A stretch of 64,000 nt of DNA, from the IMG/VR virus record IMGVR_UViG_3300011616_000001, positions 1-64,000 of that record, one strand, 5' to 3'. Source of the stretch: a virus. Lineage: Duplodnaviria > Caudoviricetes. The translations under genes were made by a program, and so were the position numbers. Under the pieces are notes generated by a model that saw nothing but the letters and a program-made list of their open reading frames with translations, did not search any database and was not told the DNA's origin. Below, one piece after another: positions 22,436 to 59,329 of the stretch; position 1 is the first letter of the stretch, and each line of letters begins with the position of its first letter.

Positions 22436-23749
22436 ATGGTAACTATAGTTTATGGTATTTTTTCAGTTTTAAATGCATACTCGGCATACCTATTTATTGA
22501 TAATTGCTTAGGCAGAAGAAGAGCCACTAACAAACAGATATTGTTAGGGTATACACTGTTTTACATAGTAGGGATATTTGCTTTTGTGAAAGGTGCTGGC
22601 CCATACACAAACTTGTTCATGACTTTAGCTACGTATTATTTGGTGGGAAGACTTTACATAGCTACTGAAAAGAAAAGGGTGATAACCGCCTTATTTCTAT
22701 ATGTTCAATATTTAATGTGCGATGTGTTTGTTTTTACAACCATGTCAACTATACTTCAAGAATTTCCACAAAGATCACCAATGCCTCTTACTGAAGAGTT
22801 GCAGAATTCAATTGGAATTATATTTGTGATGGTTTTGCAGTTCTTTGTGATTAAAGCTATTACCCCGTTACATAAAGAGAGAAATATTGAGCTGCCTCTC
22901 AAGCACTGGATTACACTATTTACTATTCCTGTAGTCAGTGGAATAGCCGTAGTATGGGTAAATCAACAGTACAAGATTGGTGGAATAACTAATTTGCCAC
23001 TCATCTATATTCTTATCGCAGCTTTTTCTTTAATAAATGTAATTGCTTTCTTCTTTTATGATCAAGCATATCAAAGTGTTGTAACGAACCATGAGAAAGA
23101 TGCTTTAGCACAAAGTCATGACAATCATCAAAAAGAAGCCGCCCTATTGCATCAGTCCTTGGGAAAAATCAGTGCAACGAAACACGATCTGGACTCACAT
23201 CTTACTACCGGAATGGGTATTGCCATAGAGCAGAAAAATGATGAAATGATAGCTTATTTTGAGCCGCTAGTAGGAGAAATAAGAAATATTGAAACTGGCA
23301 TAAAAAGTGGTAGTCCTACAATTGATACAACACTCAATTCCTGTTTGTACACAGCCAGGGATCAAAATACTCAATTACATATTGATCTTAAGATGAAGGA
23401 AGAGATACCCATTAACCCTATTGATTTGACAACCATTTTAAGCAATCTTTTGAATAATGCTCTTGAAGCCTGTATCAAACTCCCAGAAGGAGATCGGCAG
23501 ATATGGTTTTATCTGAAACACGAAAGAGGTGTTTTAAACGTCAGAGTAAAAAATACATATAATCCAGATGCGGTTGATATTCAGGACGGCAAGGCCCATA
23601 CCACAAAAGAGGATAAAAGTGCCCACGGGATTGGTCTAAAACGAATTCAGCAGACTGTAGAAAAATATAATGGAACGTTTTCCTATCGTGTTAAGGCAAC
23701 TGAGTATGGTAACATATTTGAGGCTAAGGCTATGTTGTTTACAAAATAG
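22436..23749 (+). CDS. AgrC-like membrane GHKL sensor histidine kinase
   Basis: Multiple TM segments, KHDLDSHL (phospho-His), NLLNNALEA N-box, HGIGL G-box. Confidence 0.9.
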   Translation: MVTIVYGIFSVLNAYSAYLFIDNCLGRRRATNKQILLGYTLFYIVGIFAFVKGAGPYTNLFMTLATYYLVGRLYIATEKKRVITALFLYVQYLMCDVFVFTTMSTILQEFPQRSPMPLTEELQNSIGIIFVMVLQFFVIKAITPLHKERNIELPLKHWITLFTIPVVSGIAVVWVNQQYKIGGITNLPLIYILIAAFSLINVIAFFFYDQAYQSVVTNHEKDALAQSHDNHQKEAALLHQSLGKISATKHDLDSHLTTGMGIAIEQKNDEMIAYFEPLVGEIRNIETGIKSGSPTIDTTLNSCLYTARDQNTQLHIDLKMKEEIPINPIDLTTILSNLLNNALEACIKLPEGDRQIWFYLKHERGVLNVRVKNTYNPDAVDIQDGKAHTTKEDKSAHGIGLKRIQQTVEKYNGTFSYRVKATEYGNIFEAKAMLFTK

Positions 23750-23789: not shown

Positions 23790-26700
23790 TTAACGATGTC
23801 TCGAAGTTGGTTTTCCGATTTGCTGCATTACTGCGGCACGGAGGCCACCTTTTAAAATTCCTTCAGCAAGTTGGTCAGGGTTATCACACCTTTCGATTTT
23901 GATATCACCGAAGGTGAAAGTTGTAGAGTCACCAGATCCTCTTGTAGACAACTGTCCTTGATCGAACGTTGGTGGAATAAAATGAGAAATAGGGGCAGCA
24001 GCAGCTGAGAGATTTTTCAGTAACATAGCTTGCTGATCATCATTTAGCACAGCTTCGCCACGATGGGCGATGATTGGGACTGCATTGTTGATATCTTCAA
24101 TTGGCTGACTCGAGAATAATCTGAGTAATCGTTCACGCTTTGTTTCGTTGCCTGTACCGACAAGTCCATTCTCAATACCGTCAGCATAAAGATCGTTCTC
24201 GATAGGTATAGAGTCATTACCATAACCAGAAAAGATATCATTTAATGAACCACCCCAGTTACCCCAAGGAGAATCATCATCATCGTCGTCATCATCGCTG
24301 CTCCGTCTACTGTTCATTTCGTCCAAAGCATCTTCAAGATTATCACGGACATCTTCCAGAATATATTTGATATCATTGACATCAGTGGTTAGCTGTTCCC
24401 AACTGGTCATATATTCAGAAATCAGCCCAGCATTCTCATTATATTGCCTGAATGAATCGATCAATTCTTCACCGGCAGTGATAAGTGCATCCTGAACAGT
24501 GGTTAGGATACTGTCTGCGTTGGCCTCGGCCCCAGTAGAAGCGGAGAGGAAGTCGAATACATTGTTCAGATTATCCATGCCGGACATCTTTTGATTCATT
24601 TGGGATAAGAGATCATTGATACCAGCAACCGCCTGATCATAGGTGATAGTACCTTCCTTGTAGGCGGCAATATAGTCATTGAGCAGGTTATAGATGTTCT
24701 CGGTTGATTCGATCTGATCTTCATACTGAGTCATCTGATCAGAAAGAGTTTGATACATTCCGGAGAACATGTCGTAGATATCGTCATCTTTGCCGCTTAG
24801 GACTTTATCCTTCCAACCTTCGCCCAGAATGTCGCTGGTAGCTGCTTCGTTCTTGGCCTGTTCGATTTTGTCTGCAATCTCTGACCACTTTTCGGAGATC
24901 TTTTCCAGAGAATCAATCTGTTCTTCGTAGCGGTCGTTGACTGCATCGAGTTCATCTTGGAGACCATCGATCTGCTGCTGAAGATTATGCTTTTCGAGAT
25001 TAGCTAGTGCATCTTGTAGACTTTCTTGAGCGTTTCTGAGGTTTTCAGCATTATTTTCATATACCACTGTGCCCTCTCTTATTACCCGCTCCGTCTTCTG
25101 AGTATTGGCAGAATGAAGATCATAAAGCGCCTGTTCGTAAGCAGTCTGTAGCTGAAGCGCTTCATTCTGCTTGTTCAGTAATTCTAACCGCTCATTTAAT
25201 ACATCAATCTGAGCCTGATTCTTTTCTTTCTCCAGATCACGCTCTTCTTCAAGCAAATCAATCTGCTCCTGGATAGCATTTGTGACGGTTGAAATGACCG
25301 ATTCATACTCGCTCTGTACCTTAGACATAGCATCTAAAGCTTTCTGCAAAGCGGAAGAGTAGTCGTTAACGGTGTCCAGAGGAATCTGCAGCATTGCTTC
25401 ATTCCATTTGTGTAGATTTTCGATCATTGCGGACATTTCGGCATTGATAGACTGCATCTTGTCATAAAGTTTATTCCAGTTCTCGGAGCCTTCATCGTAC
25501 TCATCCATTACATCTTGGATCAGACCGATCTGTTCCTTATACTGGTCAATGACCTTCATGCCGTTATCGATAAGCATCTGGTAATATTCTCTATCAAGCT
25601 TTTTGCCCGATGCCTCCATTTCGGAACCCCAGCGCTCCATCGTATCCGTAATGGAGTTGATCATGTTCAGGATTACTTCCATGTTCTCAATTGGGAGATT
25701 CAGCAGCTGGTCTTCTACCTCAGCAATAGCTAAGTCAAGACCGGCCATATCCTCTTCCCAGCCTTCGATATCAGACATGATGTCATGATAGTCTTCGTCA
25801 TCCGGACTAGCGCCTAGCTCAGCAAGTTTCTTCTTTGCTTCTTTGATTTTCTGTTCATAAAGGGCGATAAGCTTTTTATTATTTGCAATTACCTGTTCAT
25901 ACGATTGAGAGCTGACTATCTTACCCTGAGCTACAAGCAACTGGTTTTGAGCATCAATCTTGGCATTAGTAGAAGTGATCCGGTCAGCCTGTTTATCAAG
26001 ATACTCTATGTTATTATCATAATAATTCTTGATGTTTTCGGCAGCTTCGGCTTCTAAATCGTTTTTCTCTTTGACCGTATCTTTGAGTTTATCATGAGCC
26101 GAAATTGCCGCCTCAATGTCCTTGGCTTCGTCACCGGAGTAGCTACTAATCTCAATAGAGCCGTTTTCAATTTTGTCACGGATTTCTGGAGCGAGTTTAT
26201 TGACCAGTTCTTCGTATTTACGTTGATACTCCTCGATAGCGGTCATATAGGTTTCAAGATGGATCTTATCAGCTTCGATGATCTGAGCTAGTGCGGATCT
26301 CCGGGATTCACTATAGTTTTCGCCATTGTAAATCATTGCGAAGAGATCAGCCATGGACATTCCTGCATTCTTGGCGATTTCTTGCAACTCTACCATGTCG
26401 GTGGTTATAGTAGAACCGTTGGCTTCAATGAGTTCTTTGGCGCGGTCGAATTCCTCTTGGGTTAGACCGAGATAGGACATTGCGGCGTTAGATGCATCTT
26501 TTTCTAGCTCGTCCCTCTGATCCTTTAGTATTTCAAGCAGGCGCTCGATCCAGTCAATTTCTGTTTCTTTGTCCTTGTCAGACTTGGATTTAGATTTGGA
26601 CTTAGAAGAGTTGGCGTTGTTGACTCTATCCACGTTTTCTTTTGTCCAGCCATAATTAAGACCATTAGCAAAAGCATTACCTTTAGCAAAAGCTTTGCCA

Positions 26701-29700
26701 CGAGAACCAATTTTCCCATTTCGCTGTAGCTGCTCAGTCTGTTTGTGATTAAATATTATTGCATCTTTGGGTTTATCAATAAACTCAGCTCCGTTATCAC
26801 CAACAGTATGATATGTTCCGCTGTGTGGGTCGACAATGGTTTCTTGTCCTAACTCTCCAACAAGGACTTTCTTTAAAGCTTTTCGATTCTTAATTCCTGA
26901 ATTGCCGTTCGCATAAGCAGTTCCATAAGCACCAGCAGCACTTTCTTCACCGATACCTTCAGAATCTCCGGTGACCTTAGCAGTAGCATTAACATGAATA
27001 TCTGCTAATACGCTTGGTAGTGCTTTGATTGCGGTTGCTAGATCGTCAACCTTTTTCTTCGCACCGTTTGCATCGGTTCCAACACCCTCAAGACTATCCC
27101 TGGTTTTAGTTAGCTCAAGTTTTCCTGCCTCACTAATAGCATCAGTCAGGGTGTCAACAGAGACTTTTGCATCATCGGCTTCCTCGGTGATTTTTAGAAG
27201 CCCAGCTTTTTCGGTGTCTATTTCGAGAGACTCAATACGTCCAAGGGCCTCTGTTAAGTCGTTGATCGGGACTAAATCTGCCGTTTGGAAAGACACTCCC
27301 TCAAGCATAAGCATTTCAGTAAGAGCCGTCTGAACATCTTCCTTGCTCTGACCAAAATCCTCCATCAATCCTTTAATTAAGTTATCGATATCAATATTGC
27401 CAGTTTCTGCATCAATCTTGATAAGACCAAGTTCTTTCAACTTCTCCATGTTGGCTCTGATCCGTTCTTCATTACCACTGGTCTCGAAGTCAATTAAAAC
27501 TGTAGTGTCCATCTCAGCAACTTCTCCAAGAATCTGATGAATTTGCTTGCCGCTGAAACCTAATTCCTCAAGATACCTCTCCAGCGTTTGCATACTCATT
27601 ACGGATTTGCCATCGAGATCTTCCATAGAAAATCCAACTAACTTGAATGCTTCAGCCAGTTCTTCGACATTGTACTTGACTGTACTACCGTTGATTTTGG
27701 ACGCTTCTAAGAACTCAAGAAAAGCCTCTTTGGAAATGCCAATAGCTTTGGCGACTTCTTCATATTGAGTGGGATCGAGGTTGAGTTCAAAACTTCCGTC
27801 CGACAATAATTGAGCAGAAGAGTTTAATTTCTCTAAGACACCGCTTTTCTGAAGATCTAACAGTGGGTTCATGATCGCTGCGCCGTTATTATCAGGATCA
27901 CTCCATAGCGACTGGAATTTCTTGACCTCGGCCCTTGCCGCATCAAGATCCATGTCATAAGAGCGGTCACCAAAGAAATATTCAAGGAGTCCTTCGGTAT
28001 GTTTGCCGAAATCACCTTTTTTTAGATTCTCCTGCAATGTCTTGAATTTCTCGGTAGAGTCAACGTAGCTATCGTTGTAGTCATCTTCACCCAAGACTTT
28101 ATTTAACTTGTCTTTTGCTTTAGCTACGCCATGCATTTCGTTGTCTAACCCACCAAGAACTTTACTTAAGAGAATACCGGATTCGGTTAAGCTTGCAAAT
28201 CCGTTTTCGCCATTGGCGGTTTTCTGGAGAGCAGTTGCTAAGTATTCGGCAGATGCTCCGGTCTCGTATAGAAGATGAGCCAGGACCTCGTTTTCCTCAG
28301 CTAATTCGACGACTCTATCTGCTGTGATGGAACTTGCATCTCCAAGGTCTTCAATGCTAGCGAAGTAGTCTTCGACATCAGAATCACCAAGTTTTCCTAT
28401 TTCTTTCTGCTTGATCCCCATGTCTTCAAGAGCAAAGATAACATCATCAATTGTTAACCCATACTCTTTTCCGAGTTCAATTAAGTCTTTGAATGCATTT
28501 TTACTATTTGGATCTTCAGCCAATAACTTAAGCTCTGTTGTGCTTTTTTTACCAAATACATCTGTTAATGAACTGGCTGATAAATTACGTTTATAATTAC
28601 CAACAATAGATCCAACACGATCAATCATATTTGTGTTTGCTGATAAATCGATGTTGGCAATTGCTGCACTTGGATTTTTAAGGGCGTATTGAAAATCATG
28701 AATCTGGCTGCTGGCTTTGTCAAATACTCCTTCGATAACGGATTCATAGCCTCTCCATTTGCCTTCAGTCAGATCAATGGAATTTCTAACTTCTCTTAGA
28801 TTGTCGTGAGCCCCAGTAATATCTTCTTTTGTGCCGGATGTGAGGGCCGTGTTGTAGCGGGTTACCGCTTCGGCGGCCAGATTGTAGTCTTCAGCCAGAC
28901 TTGATGTGGTCATGACTATATACAGTTTCTCATCTTCAACGATATCTTTTGTATTGCCCATGACTTCTTTAACAACATCTAATCCAGCACTGCCACCTTT
29001 TAAAATGCCAGTCATGTCTATTGATGTTCCAATATTCTCAGATTCAAACTCCTTTTTGACTGCTCTTACTTCAGTCATGAAGTCATTAATTATTTCTTCA
29101 GCATTTTCAACATCAGCATCTAAATATAGCTTGTAATAACCTTCGACTGCGGTAGATTCAGTTCGAAGACCCTTCTTTCTGTATTTTGAGACAATCTCAT
29201 CTACCATTTTACCGTCATCATTGTTACGGTTATAGCCATGCAGCGCGAATGTTCTTTTTTTGTAATACTCATCTTTGGCGGTGTTGATATCATCTTCTTT
29301 GCTATTCAACCAGTTCTCAGCCAACTGTTTATTTAGTTGAGTGATTACTCCCAGCTGATTAGCATATGCATTTGTGACCAAATCAATTTTGCCGTGCTCT
29401 TCACCATACTTATCATTTAACTCAGTTTGCAGTTTAAGAAGTTCGCTTTTGATTTCGAACTGTCTTTCTTCGGTAGTATTAGCCGCAGTCAATTCTTTGT
29501 AGAGCGTTTTGTATTTTTCTGCTGTATCATTGATTGATTCTTGCTCAGACCTCAGTGCTTGTAACGAGTCGTTGGCCGCGTCAATTGATTCTTGACGTTG
29601 CTGTTGATATTGTTTGTAAGCGATAGCTGCACCGGCGACTACAACAATTCCAGCAGTGAGGGCTGCGGTAAGTGTAGCAGCAGCGGCAGTACTGATTCCC

Positions 29701-30044
29701 ATCTTTGCAGCAAGGGCTGTGTGGAGGTTGGAGAGGGTAACAGTGACACCTTGGTTGGTGATCTTTGCACCAGTGTTAGCATCGGTCGCAATAGTGTTTT
29801 GTGCTTCGGCAACTGTCAGGCCGGACGTAGCGAGAATGTCGCCTTCGGTGCTAGCAGTCACAGCAGCCGTAGAAAGTAGCAGCGATTTTTTTTCTGCATC
29901 AAGAAGTTTTGATGATAATACTAGTTTTTGTTGAGAAGCATCCAGTGTGTCAAATAAAGCAGCAGCTCTCGTTATATTGTTTATATCTTCATTGCCCATT
30001 AGTGTATTGATTACACTACCCACACCTATTAGATTTTTAATTTG
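23790..30044 (-). CDS. Tape measure protein of prophage B, exon 3 (2,084 codons)
   Basis: Long helical ORF; GELGQE...VGDNGAEF motif; no SD before the TTG at 30047. Confidence 0.85.
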   Translation of the reverse strand, partial: QIKNLIGVGSVINTLMGNEDINNITRAAALFDTLDASQQKLVLSSKLLDAEKKSLLLSTAAVTASTEGDILATSGLTVAEAQNTIATDANTGAKITNQGVTVTLSNLHTALAAKMGISTAAAATLTAALTAGIVVVAGAAIAYKQYQQQRQESIDAANDSLQALRSEQESINDTAEKYKTLYKELTAANTTEERQFEIKSELLKLQTELNDKYGEEHGKIDLVTNAYANQLGVITQLNKQLAENWLNSKEDDINTAKDEYYKKRTFALHGYNRNNDDGKMVDEIVSKYRKKGLRTESTAVEGYYKLYLDADVENAEEIINDFMTEVRAVKKEFESENIGTSIDMTGILKGGSAGLDVVKEVMGNTKDIVEDEKLYIVMTTSSLAEDYNLAAEAVTRYNTALTSGTKEDITGAHDNLREVRNSIDLTEGKWRGYESVIEGVFDKASSQIHDFQYALKNPSAAIANIDLSANTNMIDRVGSIVGNYKRNLSASSLTDVFGKKSTTELKLLAEDPNSKNAFKDLIELGKEYGLTIDDVIFALEDMGIKQKEIGKLGDSDVEDYFASIEDLGDASSITADRVVELAEENEVLAHLLYETGASAEYLATALQKTANGENGFASLTESGILLSKVLGGLDNEMHGVAKAKDKLNKVLGEDDYNDSYVDSTEKFKTLQENLKKGDFGKHTEGLLEYFFGDRSYDMDLDAARAEVKKFQSLWSDPDNNGAAIMNPLLDLQKSGVLEKLNSSAQLLSDGSFELNLDPTQYEEVAKAIGISKEAFLEFLEASKINGSTVKYNVEELAEAFKLVGFSMEDLDGKSVMSMQTLERYLEELGFSGKQIHQILGEVAEMDTTVLIDFETSGNEERIRANMEKLKELGLIKIDAETGNIDIDNLIKGLMEDFGQSKEDVQTALTEMLMLEGVSFQTADLVPINDLTEALGRIESLEIDTEKAGLLKITEEADDAKVSVDTLTDAISEAGKLELTKTRDSLEGVGTDANGAKKKVDDLATAIKALPSVLADIHVNATAKVTGDSEGIGEESAAGAYGTAYANGNSGIKNRKALKKVLVGELGQETIVDPHSGTYHTVGDNGAEFIDKPKDAIIFNHKQTEQLQRNGKIGSRGKAFAKGNAFANGLNYGWTKENVDRVNNANSSKSKSKSKSDKDKETEIDWIERLLEILKDQRDELEKDASNAAMSYLGLTQEEFDRAKELIEANGSTITTDMVELQEIAKNAGMSMADLFAMIYNGENYSESRRSALAQIIEADKIHLETYMTAIEEYQRKYEELVNKLAPEIRDKIENGSIEISSYSGDEAKDIEAAISAHDKLKDTVKEKNDLEAEAAENIKNYYDNNIEYLDKQADRITSTNAKIDAQNQLLVAQGKIVSSQSYEQVIANNKKLIALYEQKIKEAKKKLAELGASPDDEDYHDIMSDIEGWEEDMAGLDLAIAEVEDQLLNLPIENMEVILNMINSITDTMERWGSEMEASGKKLDREYYQMLIDNGMKVIDQYKEQIGLIQDVMDEYDEGSENWNKLYDKMQSINAEMSAMIENLHKWNEAMLQIPLDTVNDYSSALQKALDAMSKVQSEYESVISTVTNAIQEQIDLLEEERDLEKEKNQAQIDVLNERLELLNKQNEALQLQTAYEQALYDLHSANTQKTERVIREGTVVYENNAENLRNAQESLQDALANLEKHNLQQQIDGLQDELDAVNDRYEEQIDSLEKISEKWSEIADKIEQAKNEAATSDILGEGWKDKVLSGKDDDIYDMFSGMYQTLSDQMTQYEDQIESTENIYNLLNDYIAAYKEGTITYDQAVAGINDLLSQMNQKMSGMDNLNNVFDFLSASTGAEANADSILTTVQDALITAGEELIDSFRQYNENAGLISEYMTSWEQLTTDVNDIKYILEDVRDNLEDALDEMNSRRSSDDDDDDDDSPWGNWGGSLNDIFSGYGNDSIPIENDLYADGIENGLVGTGNETKRERLLRLFSSQPIEDINNAVPIIAHRGEAVLNDDQQAMLLKNLSAAAAPISHFIPPTFDQGQLSTRGSGDSTTFTFGDIKIERCDNPDQLAEGILKGGLRAAVMQQIGKPTSRHR

Positions 30045-30066
30045 CAATACATCATATATGCTGAAG

Positions 30067-30095
30067 TTGTTAATCTTTAGCTTATATGCTAGAAT
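30067..30095 (+). promoter_or_regulatory. Promoter of the antisense cargo gene
   Basis: TTGTTA-17 nt-TAGAAT with extended -10 TG. Confidence 0.65.
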
Positions 30096-30116
30096 TTAAA
30101 ATGGGAGGTAATAAAA

Positions 30117-30482
30117 ATGGAAACAAAAAAAGAAGACTACGTTATTGTCACAGGAGAAACTGAATTAAAAGCTTTCGATAAAGGGAGAAAGATGTTTGAT
30201 CCTTCTATCTCAGGTTATTTTAAGTGTGAAGTTATATCAAAGACTGATACAGAAGCGACTGTTAAGGTAATTAAAGTTCCCCCACTTACCCCGGCAGAAG
30301 CGGCAGCATACAGGCAGTCACTATCATTACCACCAATAGTCACCTGTCCCTACTGCAAATCAACAGACACCAAAAAGATATCGGGCCTATCCAAAGCTGG
30401 ATCAGTCGCTGTCTGGGGAATCTTTGCTGCTGGGAAGGTGTCGAAGCAATGGAAGTGTGGGAAGTGTAAGAGTGAGTTTTAG
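30117..30482 (+). CDS. Small zinc-ribbon protein with hydrophobic patch (intron cargo)
   Basis: GGGAGG SD; CPYC...CGKC; AVWGIFAA. Confidence 0.8.
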   Translation: METKKEDYVIVTGETELKAFDKGRKMFDPSISGYFKCEVISKTDTEATVKVIKVPPLTPAEAAAYRQSLSLPPIVTCPYCKSTDTKKISGLSKAGSVAVWGIFAAGKVSKQWKCGKCKSEF

Positions 30483-30484
30483 GC

Positions 30485-30538
30485 AAATAAAAAGAGTGCT
30501 GTAAAATAGCCAAACAATCAGTTATTTTACAGCACTCT
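30485..30538. terminator. Bidirectional intrinsic terminator inside intron 2
   Basis: 16-bp perfect stem 30493-30508/30523-30538; on - strand followed by UUUUUAUUU. Confidence 0.8.
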
Positions 30539-30604
30539 ATTACTATTTAAATGATATATCAGATATTGGATAAATCGAAGTAGCATTATAATACCATTCA
30601 TTAT

Positions 30605-30853
30605 TTAGTGATTAATAAGAGGAGTGTTTACAACATATTCCTTAAAATTATCAAATATTAGACCTAATTCTACCCAATAGCTGACTAATCTGAGCATTCG
30701 TTGTGCTTCTGGCTCTACACCTAATTCAATTAATTTTTTAGATATTGTATCGATTGTGAAACGTCCACCGGGTTGTGACAAAGCAACATTATATACTATA
30801 AGATCATAGTCGCTTCCTATATTGCTGCTACGTTTAATTAACATATTACACAT
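30605..30853 (-). CDS. Small hypothetical protein, possibly winged-helix (intron cargo)
   Basis: GAGGGG SD overlapping the end of the HD gene; 82 aa. Confidence 0.7.
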   Translation of the reverse strand: MCNMLIKRSSNIGSDYDLIVYNVALSQPGGRFTIDTISKKLIELGVEPEAQRMLRLVSYWVELGLIFDNFKEYVVNTPLINH

Positions 30854-30858
30854 GGCAA

Positions 30859-32949
30859 TTACCCCTCTTGTTTAATATTTTTATAGATATCTATTTGATT
30901 ATCTAAAGTAGTTATTATTAGATTAACTGCATTTTTGGCAATTTCTACTCCGACACGATTTAAAAACTTGTCAAGATCCAAGTTCCTTTCATATTTCTTT
31001 GGTAAAATATAAATGTAAAATTGAGGGAAAGTATTATAACCCAAATTTAATACATTTCTAATTGAACTTATCTCATGAATAGAAACAACATTCTCTGAAT
31101 TCTTCTTTTGGCTATGAAACATAATTGGTTTGGTTAATCCGTTATTATATTTCTTTATAACACAGACTACGTCTTCAATCGAATTTCCCAAGGCTTCCTT
31201 ACTTTTATTTACACTCTCTTTTATTGCAGGATTTAAACCAAAAGGTTTTATAGAATACAATATCTTTATACTATTAAATATTAAGCCCTGAAATGTGTTT
31301 GAGTCGTTTTCGTAGTTTTCTGTAGCTGAATAGAAGACAGAAGCAACATCTTTTAAAAAAGGATCAATTGGAACTTTTGGTGAACTTCCCGATTCTTTAT
31401 CACTTAAATTTTGCAAGGATTTAATCTTACAATCTATGATTTCTTTATTGCTCATTAATTCATTTAAAATTGCTTTATCAATAATTAAGAAATCTTCTAG
31501 TCTTTTTATGACCGAAATATAGTACCGTTTATTCATTAAAAGTTCTTTAAGCTGTTTTGTTAAGTAATTATCTGGATTGCCAATATAATTGCTGAAAAAA
31601 TGCTTTTTTAATACAGTCAACAACCAAGAGTCATCCCATTGCGAAATTGCATAAGAACTTTCAACACCAGATATAGGTTTTAAAGCTTTCCACAACCCAG
31701 ATATGTCATTGGGCAATAAATCAGAGTATTTCTCTTCTGCAATTTCGGCTACCTCCTTCGCAGGTATTCCTACTTCCATTGTAGCTGCAGCTTCATTGTC
31801 TTCTTCTGGCATATCTTTATTCAGTTTATCTTTCAAATATGCAATACTGATATTGGTAATTACATTTTGCATCAAATAATCCGTTTTAACCGCATGATGA
31901 TGAAATATTATATTTTTATAAATACCCCATCTTCGTTCAAGAAAATCTTCCACTGTATTAACCACTTTTATACTTGGACAAAATAAATAATTTCGTTCTT
32001 CTTTATTAGTTTTGGCGCTTGTGATGTCTGCTTGAACAAGTTTCATACTACTAAATAACCTATCGTATTCAATAGTGCCTTTTTTTAATCCTGAGTTATA
32101 TGCATCTCTTGAAGAGTAGTCAAGTCGATCACCATCTAATGATCCATCGATAATAGCATGTATATCTTCAAAATCTTTCTCGGTAAAAATATCACAGGCA
32201 GTTCGAACGATCAAAACTTCAAATAATTGTTTATTATATATTTTTGCATTACTTGAATCACTTTCGTCAATATTATCGACCGAATCCCGTAAAATTCTTT
32301 CAGAAATCCTATTCCCCATTTGTTCGTGTAGTTTTTGTGAACCTGTCCCATTAAATGAGTTCATAATTTTAATGAATTCATTCATTTTAGGGGTTTTATC
32401 AGTTATCCCTGATATTATTTCTTTTACATCTTCTAATGCAAATTCTGCTACATGACTATATGGTGGATGCCCAATATCATGTAATAGAGCCGCAACTCTA
32501 ATAGCTTCATGAAGAATTACATATGTCGATTGATGATCAAGTGCATTTTTGGGCATATTGAAAAAATTATCAAACTCTTTTGGAATTTTTGGGATTTTTG
32601 CTGTACGAAGTTTTTCAAGGCGTTCCCCAAATTTATTCGCAAATTTATCTAATGCAAGGTTAGGTATTGATTTATTGAGCTTATCTTCATAATGCACAAA
32701 GAAATTTTTTGCATGTTCGGGATTAGCATTTTTGATTGAATTATAAAAAATATTACTACATAAATGCATTGTACCTATACTGTGTTCAAATCGTTTTGTC
32801 CTATTACATGGAAAGGTCATGTATACAGTGGAATTTTGATACACATCATGAAGTCGGTTAAACATAACATGCGATAAGACTTTTCTTTCCAAATTAGTTA
32901 ATTCAATATTTCCATGAATACTATCTGCTATGATGCCCCTTTTAGCCAT
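30859..32949 (-). CDS. HD-domain phosphohydrolase, SAMHD1/dNTP-triphosphohydrolase-like (intron cargo)
   Basis: DSIHG, RFEHSIG, LLHDIGHPPYSH, DRLDY; AT-rich. Confidence 0.85.
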   Translation of the reverse strand: MAKRGIIADSIHGNIELTNLERKVLSHVMFNRLHDVYQNSTVYMTFPCNRTKRFEHSIGTMHLCSNIFYNSIKNANPEHAKNFFVHYEDKLNKSIPNLALDKFANKFGERLEKLRTAKIPKIPKEFDNFFNMPKNALDHQSTYVILHEAIRVAALLHDIGHPPYSHVAEFALEDVKEIISGITDKTPKMNEFIKIMNSFNGTGSQKLHEQMGNRISERILRDSVDNIDESDSSNAKIYNKQLFEVLIVRTACDIFTEKDFEDIHAIIDGSLDGDRLDYSSRDAYNSGLKKGTIEYDRLFSSMKLVQADITSAKTNKEERNYLFCPSIKVVNTVEDFLERRWGIYKNIIFHHHAVKTDYLMQNVITNISIAYLKDKLNKDMPEEDNEAAATMEVGIPAKEVAEIAEEKYSDLLPNDISGLWKALKPISGVESSYAISQWDDSWLLTVLKKHFFSNYIGNPDNYLTKQLKELLMNKRYYISVIKRLEDFLIIDKAILNELMSNKEIIDCKIKSLQNLSDKESGSSPKVPIDPFLKDVASVFYSATENYENDSNTFQGLIFNSIKILYSIKPFGLNPAIKESVNKSKEALGNSIEDVVCVIKKYNNGLTKPIMFHSQKKNSENVVSIHEISSIRNVLNLGYNTFPQFYIYILPKKYERNLDLDKFLNRVGVEIAKNAVNLIITTLDNQIDIYKNIKQEG

Positions 32950-33704
32950 AACCCCTCACTTTTGTAATAACAGTATGTAAAATGTATTGTATTTACTTGA
33001 AATCAAAAAATGCTTAGTACTGTTATACGCGTAGTTTTTTCTATATATTACCATATATGCTGTGTTTTTTCTATAACTTTATTATTGTTTTAATTATTTT
33101 ATATCATTCTAATTACAATTTATCAAGCGGATTTTATCATATTTAGTCAACTTATCATTGATAAAAAAATAATAAATTGCATTTTTAAAGGTTGTCTATT
33201 TTTCTTTAACAAACGACTAAAAATAGTAAACAAGCCGCCTGACCTTTTCTAGCAAGGATTATCAGAGAGTCAGAAAACTCCAATAATCACTATACCTTAA
33301 AAGCATTCCCAGTAAGGTAGGGGATACTCTGAGGATCGGTAGTCGTTGAACATCCATTCCAATTTAACCTGTTACTCCTTTTTAGGGGGATATTGGTTTC
33401 GTAGACCGTTGGAATGTGTGCTGCTAGTTACCCATTGTCGTGTAGCACTTAGGACGTATTTGCATACGCTTGTATTTCACCTTATGCCAAACAACCCGTT
33501 TTTTCTGCTTTCGCCGCATATCACGTTTATCATTGCTGATTCCGTTGTAGCCGGGATGTTGTTAGGGGATTCAAGCAATTACTCCTCATGACGTTTATTT
33601 TAAAACTCCGTCTACACATAATTGTACTATGAACCATGCTATCATTTCCTTTTATGTGCGTGCCCAAATTAAAAATCTAATAAAATACCCTTCTTTCAGG
33701 GTTA

Positions 33705-34056
33705 AGCGAAGTTTTTGAAAAGTTTGAAGCCGCCCAGTCCTGCTAGGAGAGGAGTCAGGACGCCGACTTCTTTGACAATTTGTGTTAGGACATTGACGAA
33801 GGCTGTGCCACCATCAACAAAGTTTTTTAGGAAGTCTGAGCTTATTGCCGTTTGAGCAAGGCCTTGGAACGCGGCCTTCAGTCTGCCCAATCTAAATTCG
33901 AGCGATTCAGCATACCTGCTCTGTTCCTCCATAGCTGATCCGGAGGAATTCTTTGAATCGTTATAGGCTTTTTCTACCTGTCCGGATTGGAATGCCTTGA
34001 TAAGTGCTGCGATTTGGTTACCACGCTGTTTACCAGCAATTATTTCGAGTAGGTCT
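33705..34056 (-). CDS. Tape measure protein of prophage B, exon 2 (117 codons)
   Basis: Open frame DLLEIIAGKQRGNQIAAL...KNFA, continuing the TP901-type motif from exon 1. Confidence 0.85.
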
Positions 34057-35848
34057 CATTTTGTTCCGCAAGTTCATAACGCTTGCGAGTTATTGGCTTA
34101 TTCTATAGTTGATTAGGCTATAGATGGTATTTCTTTTATAATATTGAGTTTTACAAGTTCATCAAATAGCTTATATTCAATATCATCATAACAAGTAATT
34201 CTTATTAAGTATATTTTATTCTTGCGACAATAATCGTCTTTTATATTGTCATGGCTTACAGTTTTGGAAAATGAGTTCAGCCCCCAAACTGGACGAAAAT
34301 GTTGTTCTCCGTCGAATTCTATTAAGGTGTTATACTCTGGCAGATAAAAATCAAAGGGTAAAGGTCTTTTATCCTTGCAATCTTGGTATTTTTTTTGAGT
34401 TTCAAATTGATAGCCCCATTTATCCAACAGATTACTAATTTGTTTCTCTCCCCAATAAAATCTGCTGCATTTGGGACACGATTTACCTTTTTTAACCATG
34501 TGACTAGCATGGGATAGGTATATAAATCCGCATAATTTACATTGAAGCTTTACATTATTTTTCATGCCATGATATTCTAAAACACTTATATTGGGGACTA
34601 AGCGAGTTACTTTTAGAGAAAATTCGTCTAGAGTCAAATAATTATGAGCGGAAAGTTTTTCTAATCCACATAAATAGCAACCCCTTCCATTTAAAATATC
34701 CTGCATGGACTTTGTTGAAATAACATTGTGCTTAATGCAACGGCATTTAATCCTGGCAGACAGTTTTGTATAAGGTTCCAACAATTGTACATTAGGATTT
34801 ACTTCTGCGGCTTTTTGCATTACATATTGTTTGGGCAGCTGTCGCCCAAAACAATATTTACACCCCTTGATATCTCGTTCCATATTTTTCTGTTGCATAA
34901 GTTGTATACCAAAATCTTTATGTTTGTTACAGATGAATTTAATAAATATAATGCCGTCCATTCTAATCGTATCTATGTATGTAAAATCCTTTGACTCAGC
35001 CAAGACCTTATGTTTTTCTTTGTCAAGTGCAATTCTTTTCTTATTTCCATTTGCAATTCGCCCGCAGTGAGGACACCCCTTTCCCTCCAATAGATGGCCG
35101 AGAGTAGTATGTTGTTCCCCAATTTCTTCATGTATTTTGCATATATATTTTATTTTAGAACCAGCGTTGTGAAAGTCGGTTGCATCAGACTTGAGTATAT
35201 AGTTCTTTTTTTCTATATAATGAACAACATCATCAAATGAATACTTTTTGTTTCCGCTGGGCCTTTTCAATTTCATGTCTTTTCTCTTACAGGACACCGA
35301 GCTTAATGTTCTTGGGAAAAGAAGTACACAAAGTTCTTCATCAGACATTAATTTCCAGTTATCAATAATAATTTGTTCTTCTTGTTTCGTCCATTTCAAG
35401 TTATCACCCTTGTACTATTTATTTTTTGTTGGAAGGTAATCAACCTCCATATCACGCCAATAACATCTCTGTGTTTCCACAGACGGTCAGACTATTTCTT
35501 AACCACACTCTTTCATATAGAAGAGTAGCAGTCACACCGTTTCCATTTAAGGGGTTCTCACCCATACCATTAATTTGTACCGTACTCCTATTGCCATAGA
35601 TATGTATTCTCTGGTCTATGGCCCTTCACGGGGATAGTCGTTTGACTCATTCCTATTCGGAACTTCGCGCCCAAGCTACCATTGTCACTCCACTTAGGAT
35701 TTTGTCCATATGGAATCTCTGTCGTTGTTTCACTTTCGTTACCTTCATACCAGCATATTTCATCCGTATTGTGGTGACAGAGCTTTAGGTTTTACTGGGT
35801 TTAGATGTGTTGTTCTGTGCATATTTCTATGCACACAGGCAGAACTTT
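34057..35848 (-). ncRNA. Group I intron 1 (1,792 nt), IA-like
   Basis: P1 CAGGC/GCCUG, P10 5/6, P3 CACAUC/GGUGUG, P7 GACUA 35639-35635 / UAGUC 35494-35490, P9 CUGUG-GAAA-CACAG, terminal G 34057. Confidence 0.9.
34113..35399 (-). CDS. Intron-encoded homing endonuclease (zinc-finger repeats plus Vsr/DUF559-like nuclease)
   Basis: Four Cys/His modules; GEKQI...PFDFY...IEFDGEQH...LIRI. Confidence 0.8.
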   Translation of the reverse strand: MKWTKQEEQIIIDNWKLMSDEELCVLLFPRTLSSVSCKRKDMKLKRPSGNKKYSFDDVVHYIEKKNYILKSDATDFHNAGSKIKYICKIHEEIGEQHTTLGHLLEGKGCPHCGRIANGNKKRIALDKEKHKVLAESKDFTYIDTIRMDGIIFIKFICNKHKDFGIQLMQQKNMERDIKGCKYCFGRQLPKQYVMQKAAEVNPNVQLLEPYTKLSARIKCRCIKHNVISTKSMQDILNGRGCYLCGLEKLSAHNYLTLDEFSLKVTRLVPNISVLEYHGMKNNVKLQCKLCGFIYLSHASHMVKKGKSCPKCSRFYWGEKQISNLLDKWGYQFETQKKYQDCKDKRPLPFDFYLPEYNTLIEFDGEQHFRPVWGLNSFSKTVSHDNIKDDYCRKNKIYLIRITCYDDIEYKLFDELVKLNIIKEIPSIA

Positions 35849-37560
35849 GCCTGTTCAGTTTGAGAGATGCGATCCCAAACTTCTGCAATACCTTGTAGAA
35901 TCTCATACGTTGAACGGAAATTTCCTTGGTCGTCAAATATGTTGACAGTCCCCATTGTCCGATTAAGGATCTGGGTTTGAATTTTTGATATGGAACCTAC
36001 ATTTTCATATTCTTCACCTAATTCTTCGAGGTTCCCCTTCATTCCGCGAATACGCATTGAGAGTATTTTTAAGCTGTTTCCTGTTTCTGACGCATTTTGA
36101 GTTATCTCTGTAGCACCGGTTAACATCGCCAAACTCTCATGAATATCGTTTCCAGCCATGTTGAGTGCGGCAGCAGAGTTTCTTAGCCCCTCACCTAGTG
36201 AAGCTGAATCCGTAGCAAATTTATTGCCTAAAATATTAAGTGAATCAATAATATCTATCGCATCCGTCGCTTCGATATTGAACGACTTCATGGCCGTGAC
36301 CATATCACTTACAGCTGTAGCATCATCGACCTCGCCAACGTTTGAGTATATGGAAGAGTACTCCGCGAGTACAGCTGATTCATCGACATTGAAGCCCAGC
36401 TTTGCCCAGTTAGCACTCTGAGTAACGAAACTAGAAGTAGTACGCCCTAACTCCTGAGCTTTCTTGTTTGCATTATCAAGAAATCGAGAGTATCGCCTAT
36501 CCGTCTCATCCGTAACTTTATAGAGGTTAGTCATTGCCGTATCAACTTCATAAACTGCCGAAACCATTTGCCTGATGGTTGTAATGGTTTTCATTATCAC
36601 GGCTGTAATACCAAACCACTGACCAAACTTACTGGCCTGATCCTTGATACTATCCATAAATGACCTACCCAGCTTGTTTGATCGGCGGGCAGCACCTTCA
36701 ATATTCACAAACCCCTGTCGTATTTCTTCTAATCGAGCCTTGGTGATCTGAGCACTTGAATTCAACTCATTTAAATATCCGTTTATCTGAGATCCATACG
36801 CTTTGACACCCATAGTCTTTGAGTTCTTGTCAGCAAACTCCTTGATCCTGTTCGTCAAATTATATCGAGACTGCTCAGAGGCAAGCTTGGTCTCGGCAGT
36901 GGTTAACTGTTTTACCTCATTCTTGACCTTAGCCAACACCTGCTGATACTCTTTCCAGACTGCAACCTTATCCTTTTTGGTCAGATTGGTATTCAGTTTT
37001 TGACTGAGTGAAATGAGTGTTTCATAGTCCGTCTTTAGTCCGGGTGGGATGGCAGCAGTCGCCAACGAATTGTAATTTTTTGAAGCCTTGGATACATCTG
37101 AAGACACTTTACTTTGAGCAATAGCCTTATTAATTTTCTGTATTTTTTGATATTCGTCATCTAATGCCTTATTAGCGGCCCTGTTTTGAGCTGTAGCTTG
37201 TCTCTTTTCCTCGGCTCGTCTTGCTGATTCGGTGGCTTCTCGGACTCTGCCCATAGCGTTGATCAACTTGTTTTGGGCTTTATCTGCTTTTTCCGCACCA
37301 GAGACCGCTTGCTTATAAAATTCTTTAGCCCATTGATTAGCCTCTTTACTTGAGACCGCATCGCCCATCAAATGTTTTATTTCCTTGCTAAGCGTGCTCA
37401 CTTGATCGCGTACACTCTTTTTCGATTTAGCAAACTCCTCTAAATCAAGAGTTGCACTAAGTTTTACTTTCTCCATTAGAAGCTGTTTTTGAATTGCTGG
37501 TATACTTTTAGCATCAAGTTTAGCTTCTAATAAAATTCTAAAATCTGAATTACTTCCCAT
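35849..37560 (-). CDS. Tape measure protein of prophage B, exon 1 (TP901-type core)
   Basis: VDTAMTNLYKVT, ANWAKLGF, NKFAT, GNSLKILSMRIRG. Confidence 0.9.
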
Positions 37561-37825: not shown

Positions 37826-37891
37826 AGTATATATTAGTTGGTTACAAAATAGAATCCATATGTACAAAATAGAGGTTTATATGTACAAAAT
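37826..37891 (-). promoter_or_regulatory. Three direct repeats (20-21 bp period) plus -10 box; candidate LytTR-activated promoter
   Basis: + strand TACAAAAT at 37843, 37863, 37884; - strand TATACT 37831-37826. Confidence 0.55.
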
Positions 37892-38631
37892 CAGGACAGC
37901 ATAAAATTATCCACTTCAAAATATTCTTCAATGCTTTTTCTGAAACTCTCATAGTAAGGAGGCGTAACTGGTATCTCTTCCTCGCCAATAAATACCTTGT
38001 TGTGGCTGAACGATGTAACATACACAAGGTTGACCAAATAGCTTTTATGTATACGAACAAAGTGTGGATGTATCCTTTTCACCTCGTCTTCAAATACATC
38101 CAACTTTTTATAGATTTTATACGGAAAAAATTCTCCATACTTGAGCATAAGTCTTGTGGCTCGGTGATTGAAGGTGGCATATTTTACCTCATTTAAATCA
38201 ACCTTATAACCAACCTGTTTAAAACTGACTAAATAGAACCTTTTTACAGATGCATTCAATTCGGATATGACTTTTCTCAATACACTATTTACGTCATCTT
38301 GCAATAGTGGTTTAGTTAAAAACCCAGTAGGATCAGCATTTGCCACATCCATAGTATTCTTGGCGTTTGCATAAAAGGAGATAAAGATCATCTTTGTATC
38401 AGGATATGATTTCTTAATGAACCTAGATACGTTTGTTCCCCTTTCATTTTTACCGATCATTACGTCCATAAAAATGATATCGAATTTCTTCTCCTCATTA
38501 AGATATTCAATCAACTTACTGCCCAAATTAAAATACTCAATGTGCAATGGCTCCTCAAATGGATATTTCTCTATGTACTTTATTAAATCCTTGATCTCAC
38601 TCTTTTTATCGTCACATATTGCTATATTCAT
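37891..38631 (-). CDS. LytTR/AgrA-family response regulator
   Basis: IAICDD, DIIFMD (phospho-Asp), FLTKP, FVRIHKSYLVN. Confidence 0.92.
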   Translation of the reverse strand: MNIAICDDKKSEIKDLIKYIEKYPFEEPLHIEYFNLGSKLIEYLNEEKKFDIIFMDVMIGKNERGTNVSRFIKKSYPDTKMIFISFYANAKNTMDVANADPTGFLTKPLLQDDVNSVLRKVISELNASVKRFYLVSFKQVGYKVDLNEVKYATFNHRATRLMLKYGEFFPYKIYKKLDVFEDEVKRIHPHFVRIHKSYLVNLVYVTSFSHNKVFIGEEEIPVTPPYYESFRKSIEEYFEVDNFMLS

Positions 38632-38683
38632 ATCTATATGATAACGCTTCGTCACGGAAAAGGGAATAGATTATTTTTGGAAG

Positions 38684-56491: not shown

Positions 56492-59329
56492 CTATGATTC
56501 GATTGCCTGGTAAGAGTGGGCAATCCTTTTAAAAGGTATATCATATAGTTTGATTTCGCCAGAGGGGGCTTCTTCAAGATATGTTGCATGAGCCCGGGCA
56601 TTTATAATCAATTCTATTAAATCGTCATTCTTGTGACCAAACAAAACACCGAATAGAGTTTTTGAAATATCTTTATACTCAGGCATGTCTATATACCTAA
56701 CTAATGCGTACATAGTGTCGGGGTTGATTTTAATCTTTCTGATATCATGTAGTAAATCAGTCCGGTATGCTTCAGTCAAAAAATGCTTTTCAGCGGAAGA
56801 GTAGTATTCCCTGCTCCAAATGAACTGTATACCCTTAGTGGTTTCTCGACATCTCGAAACTATCATTTTTAGCTGTTTACGATTAACGGAATTAGTATTA
56901 TATCCTTCAAAGTAGAAACATTTAGACAACGGGAAAAACTCAGTTGGCTTTGATTTTGATGATTTGTATTTATTGAGTATTTTTAAAACAAAATCCATTG
57001 TTGTGTGGTGATACACATATTTTTTTCTTGCGCAATTTTTATAACCCTTGGATTGTGCAATAAATCCGAGAAAGGCTGGTTTTATCATTTTTTTGTCAAA
57101 AGTATATTCCATCCACCTTTTTTTGATTTTTCTTATTTCTTTGTCAGACGATATATCGAACTCTTTTTTTGCCTTATCTATTTCTATACACGATAAAACA
57201 TTTAGTATGCATATGTCATAATAGAGATCCTTCACATCTTCGTAGCAATCTATTAGCCTTTTATTTGATTTGTTTATGTACTCCCACATCATTGTATTTA
57301 GTTCTTGTGATAGATTTACAATTTCCCCGATCTTATTTTCACTGGTTTTATAATCGAGATCAGCCTTATTCTCATTTGTGTAATATCTTTGAGACTTTCT
57401 GGCTTTTACAAGATTAGCCGGAATCTTAAAAACATTATAGTTTCTCAGTGCAGCTGTAATCAGGATTTCATTATCAGTAACAATCATTTGATCTGAGTCA
57501 AAGTCAGCACCACTCAAACGCTCTAAAATGTTTTCTTTTATCGCATTTATACAGACTATTTCTGGTGTGAGATTAAAATATATATCAATCAGGTCGTGCT
57601 TCATATTTGTGGTGATAAGAATATTTGAGGTTGATATGTGTGGACTTCTGCAACCCAACAACTTCTTACCATAGGGGTAACGCCGTGTATGTATATTACC
57701 AGGAGGGAGAGAAGACTCTCCGCTAAATGCCCCTAGCGTATGTAGCAGCATCTCATATGGATTGCCGAATAAAACTGAGTAGTTTCCGTCAATTAATATG
57801 TGGCCCATTTTGAGATTTTTCAAATAGGATTTACAAGTTTCTTTTTTGAAGTCATAGAAGTACTTAGTGTTTGCGAAATCGGAAGAGATATTTAACATCT
57901 TATACACAATTTCATTCTTGTTTGTCAGGACATTATCGATTTCTGCTTCGTTATCTTGTATTTCACACTTGATATGATATTTTAGAACATCGGTGTCGGT
58001 GTTTAGGTAGTTGACATACTCCAGTGATGGGTTTAGTAATTTTTTGATCTCTGTTTCTGATAACTGCAATGTATTTAATAATTGGTAATGGGCCTGAACC
58101 ATTCTCCCATCAAAGTAATGTGTTTTTTTATCGTGTTTTACAACACTAAAGGTCGAATCAATATTTGTTAACCAATCTGTAAGTGATCCAAACTTGATGT
58201 ATTTAATGCTATTAGGAGTTGTAACCAGTTTTATATCTTCTATCCTTGAAGCAAAAGTGATTGACTCTGGGTGAAGTTGAGAGATGTTTGTAATATTATT
58301 ATCTCGAAACCATTGTTGTAAGTTTGTATTAAAGCAACATGATTTGAAAAACCTGTTTCTCAGAAGCATCATACCATAGCAAGAGTATTTGCCCATGATA
58401 CTCATATCAATTAAAGACTGACCATCAAAGATTGAATTTGATATGTTAGCAACACCTTCTCGGACGCATATGTCATTTTTATCATCCATTTCGACAATAA
58501 TAGACTCTTCCTGAACATTACTGTCATAATCAGGTATAATCAGAATGTTTCTAGGATCGATATCTATGATATCAATGGCACTGCTCGTTGGCAGTGAGAT
58601 ATAGGATTCAAGGGCGGCTAGGTCTATACTTTGCCCATCTTGAATATCCAAACCACACATTTCCCAAGCATGAAGTGGGGGATATAGTCTCTCATCAATG
58701 AAAAGACATTTTCCTACTCTGGCAGAACCAGAAGATCTTTTAAAGCGAACATAATGTTTGCCATTACAATTAAAGCCATTTTCATATAAATATTCTCTCA
58801 GTTCTTTTTTGGTCAGTTCTACATGGATATTTTTTGCGACATAATTCCATGTCCCGTTTTCGTTTTCCTCAAATGAAAAGCCTCGTGGTAAATCAAAACT
58901 TGTTTCCTGGTGTGTGGGGACATTTGTAATTACACCAACAATAATGCCGTCGATAGTGGCGATATTATCCTTGAATATAAGTTCATCCAAAAAATACCCA
59001 CTCATAACAAAAGTATTCTTCTTTAACTTATTAAAGGCCTTGCTGCTATACTCAAAGGTCACATTGATTATCTTGTCACTGTAATCTTTTCCGTTGTGCT
59101 GAAATGTAAGCGGTTCTTTTTTGGGGAGTATCTCTCTTGCTACTTCAGTGAGCTTCATTTTATCCAAACTGAAGTCGAATGAATTACGAAATCTGTTGTA
59201 ATTAATATCTCCATTTTTTGTTATTAAACGATATCCTGTTTGATTCTGTTCAGCGTTGTGTGATGTATTTGCTAAATATAAATCTTTAGCATCTATACTT
59301 GGAATGTAAATGCATTTTCTTGAGTTTAT
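56492..59329 (-). CDS. yonO: YonO-like single-subunit RNA polymerase (945 aa, ATA start)
   Basis: RSSGSARVGKCLF, RSPH, catalytic GADFDSD; frame extends 54 codons above the tracked start to ATA after AGGAGG. Confidence 0.82.
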   Translation of the reverse strand: MNSRKCIYIPSIDAKDLYLANTSHNAEQNQTGYRLITKNGDINYNRFRNSFDFSLDKMKLTEVAREILPKKEPLTFQHNGKDYSDKIINVTFEYSSKAFNKLKKNTFVMSGYFLDELIFKDNIATIDGIIVGVITNVPTHQETSFDLPRGFSFEENENGTWNYVAKNIHVELTKKELREYLYENGFNCNGKHYVRFKRSSGSARVGKCLFIDERLYPPLHAWEMCGLDIQDGQSIDLAALESYISLPTSSAIDIIDIDPRNILIIPDYDSNVQEESIIVEMDDKNDICVREGVANISNSIFDGQSLIDMSIMGKYSCYGMMLLRNRFFKSCCFNTNLQQWFRDNNITNISQLHPESITFASRIEDIKLVTTPNSIKYIKFGSLTDWLTNIDSTFSVVKHDKKTHYFDGRMVQAHYQLLNTLQLSETEIKKLLNPSLEYVNYLNTDTDVLKYHIKCEIQDNEAEIDNVLTNKNEIVYKMLNISSDFANTKYFYDFKKETCKSYLKNLKMGHILIDGNYSVLFGNPYEMLLHTLGAFSGESSLPPGNIHTRRYPYGKKLLGCRSPHISTSNILITTNMKHDLIDIYFNLTPEIVCINAIKENILERLSGADFDSDQMIVTDNEILITAALRNYNVFKIPANLVKARKSQRYYTNENKADLDYKTSENKIGEIVNLSQELNTMMWEYINKSNKRLIDCYEDVKDLYYDICILNVLSCIEIDKAKKEFDISSDKEIRKIKKRWMEYTFDKKMIKPAFLGFIAQSKGYKNCARKKYVYHHTTMDFVLKILNKYKSSKSKPTEFFPLSKCFYFEGYNTNSVNRKQLKMIVSRCRETTKGIQFIWSREYYSSAEKHFLTEAYRTDLLHDIRKIKINPDTMYALVRYIDMPEYKDISKTLFGVLFGHKNDDLIELIINARAHATYLEEAPSGEIKLYDIPFKRIAHSYQAIES

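Follow-up and report, generated by a model that had tools for sequence, protein, structure and literature searches.

Intron 2 of the tape-measure gene

The window analysed here is a 64,000-nucleotide (nt) stretch (positions 1 to 64,000) of the virus record IMGVR_UViG_3300011616_000001 (Duplodnaviria; Caudoviricetes), an 84.7-kilobase (kb) IMG/VR entry that is a metagenomic contig and ~70% complete. On its minus strand lies a tape-measure gene in three exon pieces, separated by two introns (all features below are on the minus strand unless the plus strand is named). The second of these, intron 2, spans 30045..33704 and measures 3660 nt from its first base to its terminal G (omega-G, 30045); comparison with related sequences indicates that it is a real, and probably working, group I intron belonging to a variant lineage that had not been described. 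An earlier note on this DNA, made from its letters, had described a hairpin and U tract ahead of the 3′ splice site, a UAGUG at the expected position of the P7 3′ strand, an intact UAGUC farther on, and an unusually long P10, and had offered trans-splicing, read-through by a phage polymerase or decay of the ribozyme as explanations. All four features are present, each where the note had placed it.

The exons frame the intron precisely. Exon 1, which holds the Pfam PhageMin_Tail domain, ends near 35850; exon 2 (33705..34055) ends in U33705, the base at the 5′ splice site; and exon 3 (23790..30044) is open throughout its ~2085 codons, with its first 18 nt forming the target of P10. The three pieces are colinear with two homologues that have no interruption, P0008 and P0016. 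In particular, joining 33705 to 30044 gives KNFA-QIKN, the homologues read KNFE-QLKN at the same place without a gap, and exact excision of intron 2 restores the host reading frame in register with both proteins. The predicted span from 33704 to 30045 is confirmed by these colinear intron-less homologues; the last base is U in the upstream exon and G in the intron.

A near-identity DNA search and an exon 3 protein search of the phage collection returned no matches, a locus search of viral contigs with exon 3 returned one distant locus, and a locus search of genome contigs with exon 1 returned none. Among the public sequencing runs listed for this stretch there is none of RNA; the DNA contigs cover small shares of the window, and one Logan contig (L188) is identical to it.

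The ribozyme core and the P7 region

The ribozyme body (33190..33661) contains P2, P3, P4-P6 with a large P5 extension, P7, P8 and 3′ hairpins. A full-length alignment to the Rfam group I model RF00028 was obtained in a 611-nt search (21.2 bits, E = 0.004); Rfam gave no group I match on the whole window at the gathering score, nor on 10 kb at E ≤ 10. The core sequences (P4/P5 and R) match those of canonical phage introns, and P3′ comes directly after P7, with no P7.1/P7.2. The P7 5′ strand (33340..33347) has the same sequence as R in canonical phage introns and includes G33344, the equivalent of Tetrahymena G264, which forms the guanosine-binding pair G264-C311 of P7 in that ribozyme (PMC10020454).

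The opposite strand of P7 departs from the canonical form. The S consensus is matched through J8/7 and the UAGU with which the P7 3′ strand starts (33289..33298), and in the Rfam alignment the UAGUG at 33292-33288 falls at the AUAGUC of the group I model. The place of the C in the canonical AUAGUC is taken by a hairpin, H1 (33257..33288), with the closing pair G33288-C33257 and a predicted fold of -9.7 kcal/mol (z = -3.3). No second copy of H1 was found in the window, so there is no sign of a repeated mini-element. The stretch after H1 (33245..33256) consists of CUU, a candidate completion of P7 in which C33256 would pair with G33344, and a conserved 9-nt motif.

Further downstream, a distal UAGUC site (33212..33219) matches the P7 5′ strand as a complement over 8 nt without a mismatch, and ~0.7 sites of this kind would be expected per 64-kb strand; its UAGUC (33219-33215) is followed by a small hairpin at 33214-33194, as the earlier note had it. 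Two hairpins linked by CUU (33288-33257 and 33253-33216) can form in the 73 nt that separate the candidate Cs, the second of which is a single-sequence prediction; comparison with the relative L199 suggests other pairing there. Canonical introns were represented by >100 distinct phage group I cores that share P4/P5 and R, collected in two pattern scans of viral contigs. AUAGU-CU occurs in ~100 of 113 distinct canonical phage introns, which makes the UAGUG of intron 2 genuinely unusual. As a consequence of this layout, the G-C guanosine pair of P7 forms only with H1 looped out, with the distal site used, or with the closing pair of H1 serving in its place.

A conserved family of related introns

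A search of species-representative genomes with an 18-nt pattern that covers R and the 3′ strand of P3 produced 22 matches, 10 of which are related ribozymes in prophage regions of Lachnospiraceae, Clostridium and Eubacterium metagenome-assembled genomes (MAGs). Their identity to the window ribozyme is 88% for L199 and 68-72% for the rest. The same R-P3′ 18-mer had no matches in viral contigs, and a pattern scan of metagenomes gave three chance matches, in coding DNA. The five relatives checked (L199/L219, L204, L205, L206 and L212) lie at the homologous tape-measure position; for example, the L205 junction reads ...KNLD/QLQNL.... The L219 locus (4640-5312; G001:C20) is a Lachnospiraceae MAG prophage with an 88%-identical ribozyme and a cargo-free intron of 673 nt.

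The non-canonical P7 3′ strand recurs throughout the family. In all 10 relatives, the base after UAGU is an invariant G, at which a hairpin with a covarying stem opens. The closing G-C of this hairpin is invariant in all 12 sequences compared and is the only H1 pair that never varies. Eight of the 10 relatives add a 4-nt linker and a second covarying hairpin, the window phage having one hairpin. The conserved 9-nt motif follows the hairpin domain in every relative, and CU precedes it in nine. Moreover, RNAalifold predicted 120 pairs across 10 family members, 46 of them with compensatory changes; pairs of P2, P6, P8, the P5 extension and the two inserted hairpins are among these. The conservation of UAGU-G in 10 of 10 relatives makes it a lineage trait under selection, not strain damage, and the altered core proposed in the earlier note is thereby supported, with more force than the note had given it. 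The family escapes standard Rfam thresholds, so introns of this kind are probably under-annotated in gut phages.

A closer relative, X2, is represented by contigs of one public run and differs from the window at ~6% of bases over 33199-33896, with no insertions or deletions. Its odd S element and hairpin are unchanged. In a GNRA-capped hairpin of the P5 extension a U-A pair is replaced by C-G and the loop stays GNRA, and the first two intron bases are altered with the P1 pairing kept. Of the 15 exon 2 codons that differ, 10 are synonymous and 5 conservative. These changes point to selection both on the RNA structure and on the exon 2 protein, and the latter matters only if the flanking introns are removed.

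Models of the guanosine-binding site

Looping the hairpin domain out of the P7 3′ strand would allow UAGU and CU to rebuild the canonical helix together with its G-C guanosine site, an arrangement to which we give slightly better than even chances. With the hairpin domain treated as an insertion, the strand reads AUAGU-CU-G, as in the commonest canonical form, and G33344 pairs with C33256. In Tetrahymena terms, the inserted domain would separate U310 from C311, which make up two layers of the guanosine pocket (PMC10020454), and the intron of the Lactococcus phage AM1 group has an extra base at the same place.

The guanosine site could instead have been rebuilt, with a four-pair P7 stacked on H1, the invariant closing G-C, inverted relative to G264-C311, binding guanosine and the old G left unpaired. 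The closing pair is indeed the sole H1 pair to stay invariant in the 12 sequences as the rest of the stem covaries. However, no precedent for such a site was found, and the conservation of CU after the hairpin domain (9 of 10 relatives) would go unexplained; this model is considered unlikely.

A further model follows the second P7 register of the earlier note and takes the distal UAGUC (33219-33215) as the true P7 3′ strand, with the proximal S-like element either a remnant or used only for its UAGU, the two intervening hairpins being looped out. A perfect 8-bp (base pair) complement of the P7 5′ strand is rare by chance, and this register has the lowest nearest-neighbour energy. It is conserved in the window phage, X2 and L199, but it is missing from the other eight relatives. 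Used whole, the distal register would part the conserved J8/7 from P7, and single-sequence folding pairs the distal site inside another hairpin. The distal register is on balance a poor candidate. The four P7 models differ by 2-7 kcal/mol in nearest-neighbour energy, a range too small to discriminate between them.

A long P10 guide and its probable role at the 3′ splice site

The internal guide (33662..33682) supplies 33667-33662 to P1 and 33682-33665 to P10. In P1, U33705 is wobble-paired to G33664, and changes in the exon are matched by changes in the guide (GCU and GGC here, GAU and GUC in relatives). P10 directly adjoins P1 and pairs 33682-33665 with 30044-30027, the start of exon 3, over 18 of 18 bp (duplex energy of -16.4 kcal/mol). 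The length of P10 that the earlier note had remarked on is a feature of the family: a guide of 18-19 nt occurs in the five relatives with a located 3′ splice site (L199/L219, L204, L205, L206 and L212), where it tracks each exon 3 sequence and its pairing is broken by bulges and wobbles; in these too the intron ends in G and P10 adjoins P1. The introns of L206 and L212 are ~1.1 kb long, the introns of the relatives with the long guide span 0.67-1.4 kb, and L199/L219 has the long P10 in a cargo-free intron of 673 nt without an open reading frame (ORF). Its presence in short, cargo-free relatives indicates that the long P10 is not an adaptation to cargo or to trans-splicing. Rather, it may compensate for the altered guanosine site and the absence of an obvious P9.0, and would position the 3′ splice site 0.3-3.2 kb past the catalytic core. 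When the tail of the ribozyme was compared with the 3′ tail, the long-range pairing was no better than in shuffled sequence, P10 being the only significant link.

The last three intron bases are AUG (UUG here, 30045-30047), in frame with exon 3, in five of six family members examined; the AUG lies at 5310 in L219, at 7364 in L205 and near 7719 in L204, and L206 has it too. An element that simply splits the gene, with no splicing and with exon 3 translated alone from this in-frame AUG or UUG, would account for these codons in L199/L219, L204, L205, L206 and the window phage. However, inspection upstream of exon 3 revealed no Shine-Dalgarno motif (in the window phage, L219, L205 and L206), the homologues are single proteins, and neither the conserved ribozyme structure nor the exon-complementary guide would be explained; this possibility is given very little weight.

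Cargo genes inside intron 2

Past the ribozyme, the intron carries a two-gene module and an antisense gene. The module is preceded by an AT-rich leader (32950..33189) whose promoter-like sites are consensus matches, not enriched over shuffled sequence. Within the leader, two 22-nt direct repeats, 30 nt apart (33024-33075), lie upstream of the start of the first gene and may be operator sites. Cargo gene 1 (30859..32949) encodes a protein of 696 amino acids (aa) with an HD domain (Pfam HD) that is SAMHD1/dGTPase-like over its first ~310 residues; no function is assigned to its C-terminal ~390 aa. PADLOC and NCBIfam dGTPase models align with the HD motif only, scoring 15-25 bits against cut-offs of 152-467, and matches in the Protein Data Bank (PDB) are to SAMHD1 and HD hydrolases, those to SAMHD1 covering residues 6-67. 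The HD protein has >1000 full-length homologues. Cargo gene 2 (30605..30853) encodes an 82-aa partner protein that is 61% and 38% identical to the product of an 80-aa gene after HD homologues in L192 and L193. Elsewhere the HD/80-aa pair is free-standing: it is found next to a prophage lysis cassette and also within a sugar-utilisation region of a chromosome.

The module was found in no other member of the family. A tblastn search did not detect it in any of the ten family loci, although some of these loci stop inside the intron, and the HD protein was not found in the genome holding L199. The module, its promoter-like region and its terminator were seen only in the window phage, and relative to L199 they amount to a ~3.1-kb insertion between roughly 33175 and 30080. 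The two-gene module, bringing its own promoter and terminator, would have inserted between the ribozyme and the antisense gene, and would be expressed independently, most likely in the lysogen. The boundary of ribozyme and cargo is also the place where two independent Logan contigs stop (at 33225 and, for X2, near 33186), which could reflect low coverage of AT-rich sequence or a branch between cargo-bearing and cargo-free variants.

The antisense gene (30117..30482, plus strand) encodes a 121-aa zinc-ribbon protein with a weak match to Pfam Zn_ribbon_PaaD, below the cut-off. Its C-terminal 45 aa are also encoded, always antisense, in the introns of L203, L204, L205, L212 and L215 (44-73% identity), and L204 and L205 have further antisense ORFs without a known domain. 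A promoter-like site for this gene (30067..30095, plus strand), a consensus match only, has a TG-extended -10 box and lies in the last 70 nt of the intron. All family members examined have a CAAC-containing motif 20-27 nt ahead of the terminal G (30066-30073 in the window); here the motif is at the same time complementary to the -35-like box of the promoter for the antisense gene, and either a role in the RNA or one in the promoter may be what conserves it. Searches with Pfam found no transposase or TnpB in the cargo.

The internal terminator and possible read-through

A hairpin and U tract (30485..30541), the terminator of the HD operon, lie between that operon and the convergent plus-strand gene. 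The hairpin (30490-30541) has a 16-19 bp stem, a 14-nt loop and a predicted energy of -25.8 kcal/mol (z = -6.7), and the U-rich tract follows it on the minus strand ~440 nt before the 3′ splice site, as the earlier note had described. In the two relatives examined (L205 and L199/L219), hairpins follow the ribozyme with no sense-strand U tract. The terminator is part of the HD module.

With a strong terminator on the sense strand, trans-splicing was one of the options of the earlier note. In that case, transcription would stop at the terminator, and a second RNA carrying exon 3, with its promoter within the final 440 nt of the intron, would be captured by the 18-bp P10. The guide could hold a second RNA (-16.4 kcal/mol), and P10 is also the one significant link between the ribozyme tail and the 3′ tail. 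However, the long guide occurs as well in relatives of 0.67-1.4 kb, the two examined (L199/L219 and L205) having no sense terminator. Moreover, no promoter-like site was found on the minus strand from 30485 to 30045, this segment is antisense to an expressed-looking gene, and the DNA is contiguous. Trans-splicing is accordingly rated as highly improbable.

Read-through past the terminator is the simplest reading of the sequence and a plausible one. A candidate for a YonO-like single-subunit RNA polymerase of 891 aa is encoded at 56492..59167. This ORF matches phrog_8308 at 1.7e-92 (function unnamed) and, weakly, phrog_4291, 'RNA-dependent RNA polymerase'; no PDB or NCBIfam match was found. By tblastn, it has matches of 21-22% identity in Bacillus, Thomasclavelia and Enterocloster phages, including a hypothetical protein of Bacillus subtilis phage BUCT082 (21% identity, E = 4e-12), and relatives of the ORF are annotated as 'RNA-dependent RNA polymerase'. 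YonO itself is reported to transcribe the late genes of SPbeta as one operon (PMC5467207). Two further strong sense-strand signals of hairpin and U tract (56289-56326 and 52905-52936, with 17 and 14 pairs) stand between same-strand genes of a cluster, and transcription there must restart or read through. In intron 2, late transcription would pass the terminator by means of the YonO-like polymerase or by partial read-through, to be followed by cis-splicing. Tape-measure protein is needed in only a few copies per virion, so partial read-through could suffice.

Overall, the comparisons favour, with fair confidence, a working group I intron of a distinct lineage in the tape-measure genes of Clostridia phages, cis-spliced after read-through of the terminator. 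Several points weigh against this interpretation. The RF00028 score of 21.2 bits lies below the gathering score of 50, P4 has a U-U mismatch, and P1 is weak here, with three exon pairs and -3.4 kcal/mol. A contiguous P7 puts G opposite G at the guanosine site, which would be inactive in known introns; we know of no group I intron in which a helix intervenes between the counterparts of U310 and C311, beside the guanosine pocket (layers as in PMC10020454). Nearest-neighbour energy is best for the distal register (-27.1 kcal/mol, compared with -20 to -25 kcal/mol), and L199 has CC, not CU, after the hairpin. Because the search pattern included the R element, the constancy of R across the family carries no independent weight, and covariation offers no way to choose between the P7 models. 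Further, the paper on YonO contains no terminator assay (PMC5467207).

Some of the same features, namely the lack of a G-C pair in a contiguous P7, the P4 mismatch and the weak P1, along with a record that is a ~70%-complete metagenomic contig, would also fit the earlier suggestion that the ribozyme has decayed in a defective prophage that no longer makes its tape-measure protein. Yet the same 'defect' is kept in 10 relatives with covariation around it, X2 shows a compensatory ribozyme change and mostly synonymous changes in exon 2, and exon 3 has stayed open over its whole length; decay is very doubtful. Both trans-splicing and decay of the ribozyme are therefore regarded as unlikely explanations of intron 2.

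Comparison with known systems

Intron 2 shares with the subgroup IA phage introns (of the T4 td/nrdB/sunY type) a U-G wobble at the 5′ splice site, a terminal G and a P/Q/R/S core. The sunY intron also has its 3′ splice site far downstream of its core. In contrast to subgroup IA, the C of AUAGUC is displaced in the present family by one or two hairpins, P10 extends over 18-19 nt instead of a few, P7.1/P7.2 are absent, and the cargo is antisense, with no recognisable homing endonuclease. The position of the intron has a parallel in the prophage tape-measure introns of the Bacillus cereus group, which are likewise inserted in a conserved tape-measure stretch (PMC2504315).

IStrons, which combine a group I intron with an IS200/605 element (PMC4227781), have in common with intron 2 a 5′ ribozyme, kilobases of foreign genes past the P9 region and a remote 3′ splice site. 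However, the IStron ribozyme is of subgroup IA2, whereas intron 2 has neither P7.1/P7.2 nor a transposase or TnpB, and its family is fixed at one homologous tape-measure site where IStrons are scattered. Group I introns in tape-measure genes (PMC2504315) and chimeras of a ribozyme with 3′ cargo (IStrons; PMC4227781) are thus already known.

Within the phage collection, the closest intron, and the source of the only matches there, is that of the Lactococcus phage AM1/LW81 group, which splits the DNA polymerase III alpha gene and is 73% identical in the extension of P5. Its core is the same and likewise lacks P7.1/P7.2, and one U is added between UAGU and CU (UAGU-U-CU). It differs in having one inserted base and not a hairpin, a short 3′ end and internal sense ORFs. 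In the AM1 genome (L003, 2160-3290; KY554768), DNA polymerase III alpha is annotated as two coding sequences ~1.2 kb apart; the gap holds the related group I core and small ORFs, and the intron is unannotated.

The HD module resembles prophage morons and anti-phage dNTPases in having its own promoter-like region, a terminator and a SAMHD1-like HD fold signature, and the same gene pair is found elsewhere beside a prophage lysis cassette. Unlike these, it sits inside an intron, its model matches are confined to the HD motif and fall far below the cut-offs, and it has the additional C-terminal region of ~390 aa and the 80-aa partner.

A broader proposal, made only tentatively, is that this lineage combines a guanosine helix interrupted or rebuilt by a hairpin domain, a guide of 18-19 nt that picks the 3′ splice site, and a long 3′ region that could act as a safe harbour, inside an essential late gene of temperate phages, for independently expressed antisense and defence-like genes. 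Few features of group I introns are as conserved as the guanosine-binding G-C pair, and a family that breaks the continuity of its strand and yet retains a splicing-type architecture would show a new structural solution. Further, introns of phage structural genes can evidently carry genes other than homing endonucleases, and their cargo (the zinc-ribbon in five relatives, the SAMHD1-like HD module here) links intron biology with the traffic of morons and defence genes. The arrangement also raises the question of late transcription crossing a strong terminator inside an essential gene.

Intron 1 and flanking genes

Intron 1 (34060-35850) has a canonical S element and insertions of the P7.1/P7.2 type, with a sub-threshold Rfam score of 27.7 bits. 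Its ORF encodes a nuclease-like protein of 428 aa that matches phage HNH and homing-endonuclease PHROGs and has treble-clef zinc fingers and a Vsr-like C-terminus. At the junction of exon 1 and exon 2, one or two codons are ambiguous.

The tape-measure gene is flanked by regulatory genes on both sides. Directly upstream lies a REC-LytTR response regulator (37891-38655, minus strand), and directly downstream a 437-aa HATPase_c_5 histidine kinase (22436-23749, plus strand); together they look like an Agr-like two-component pair.

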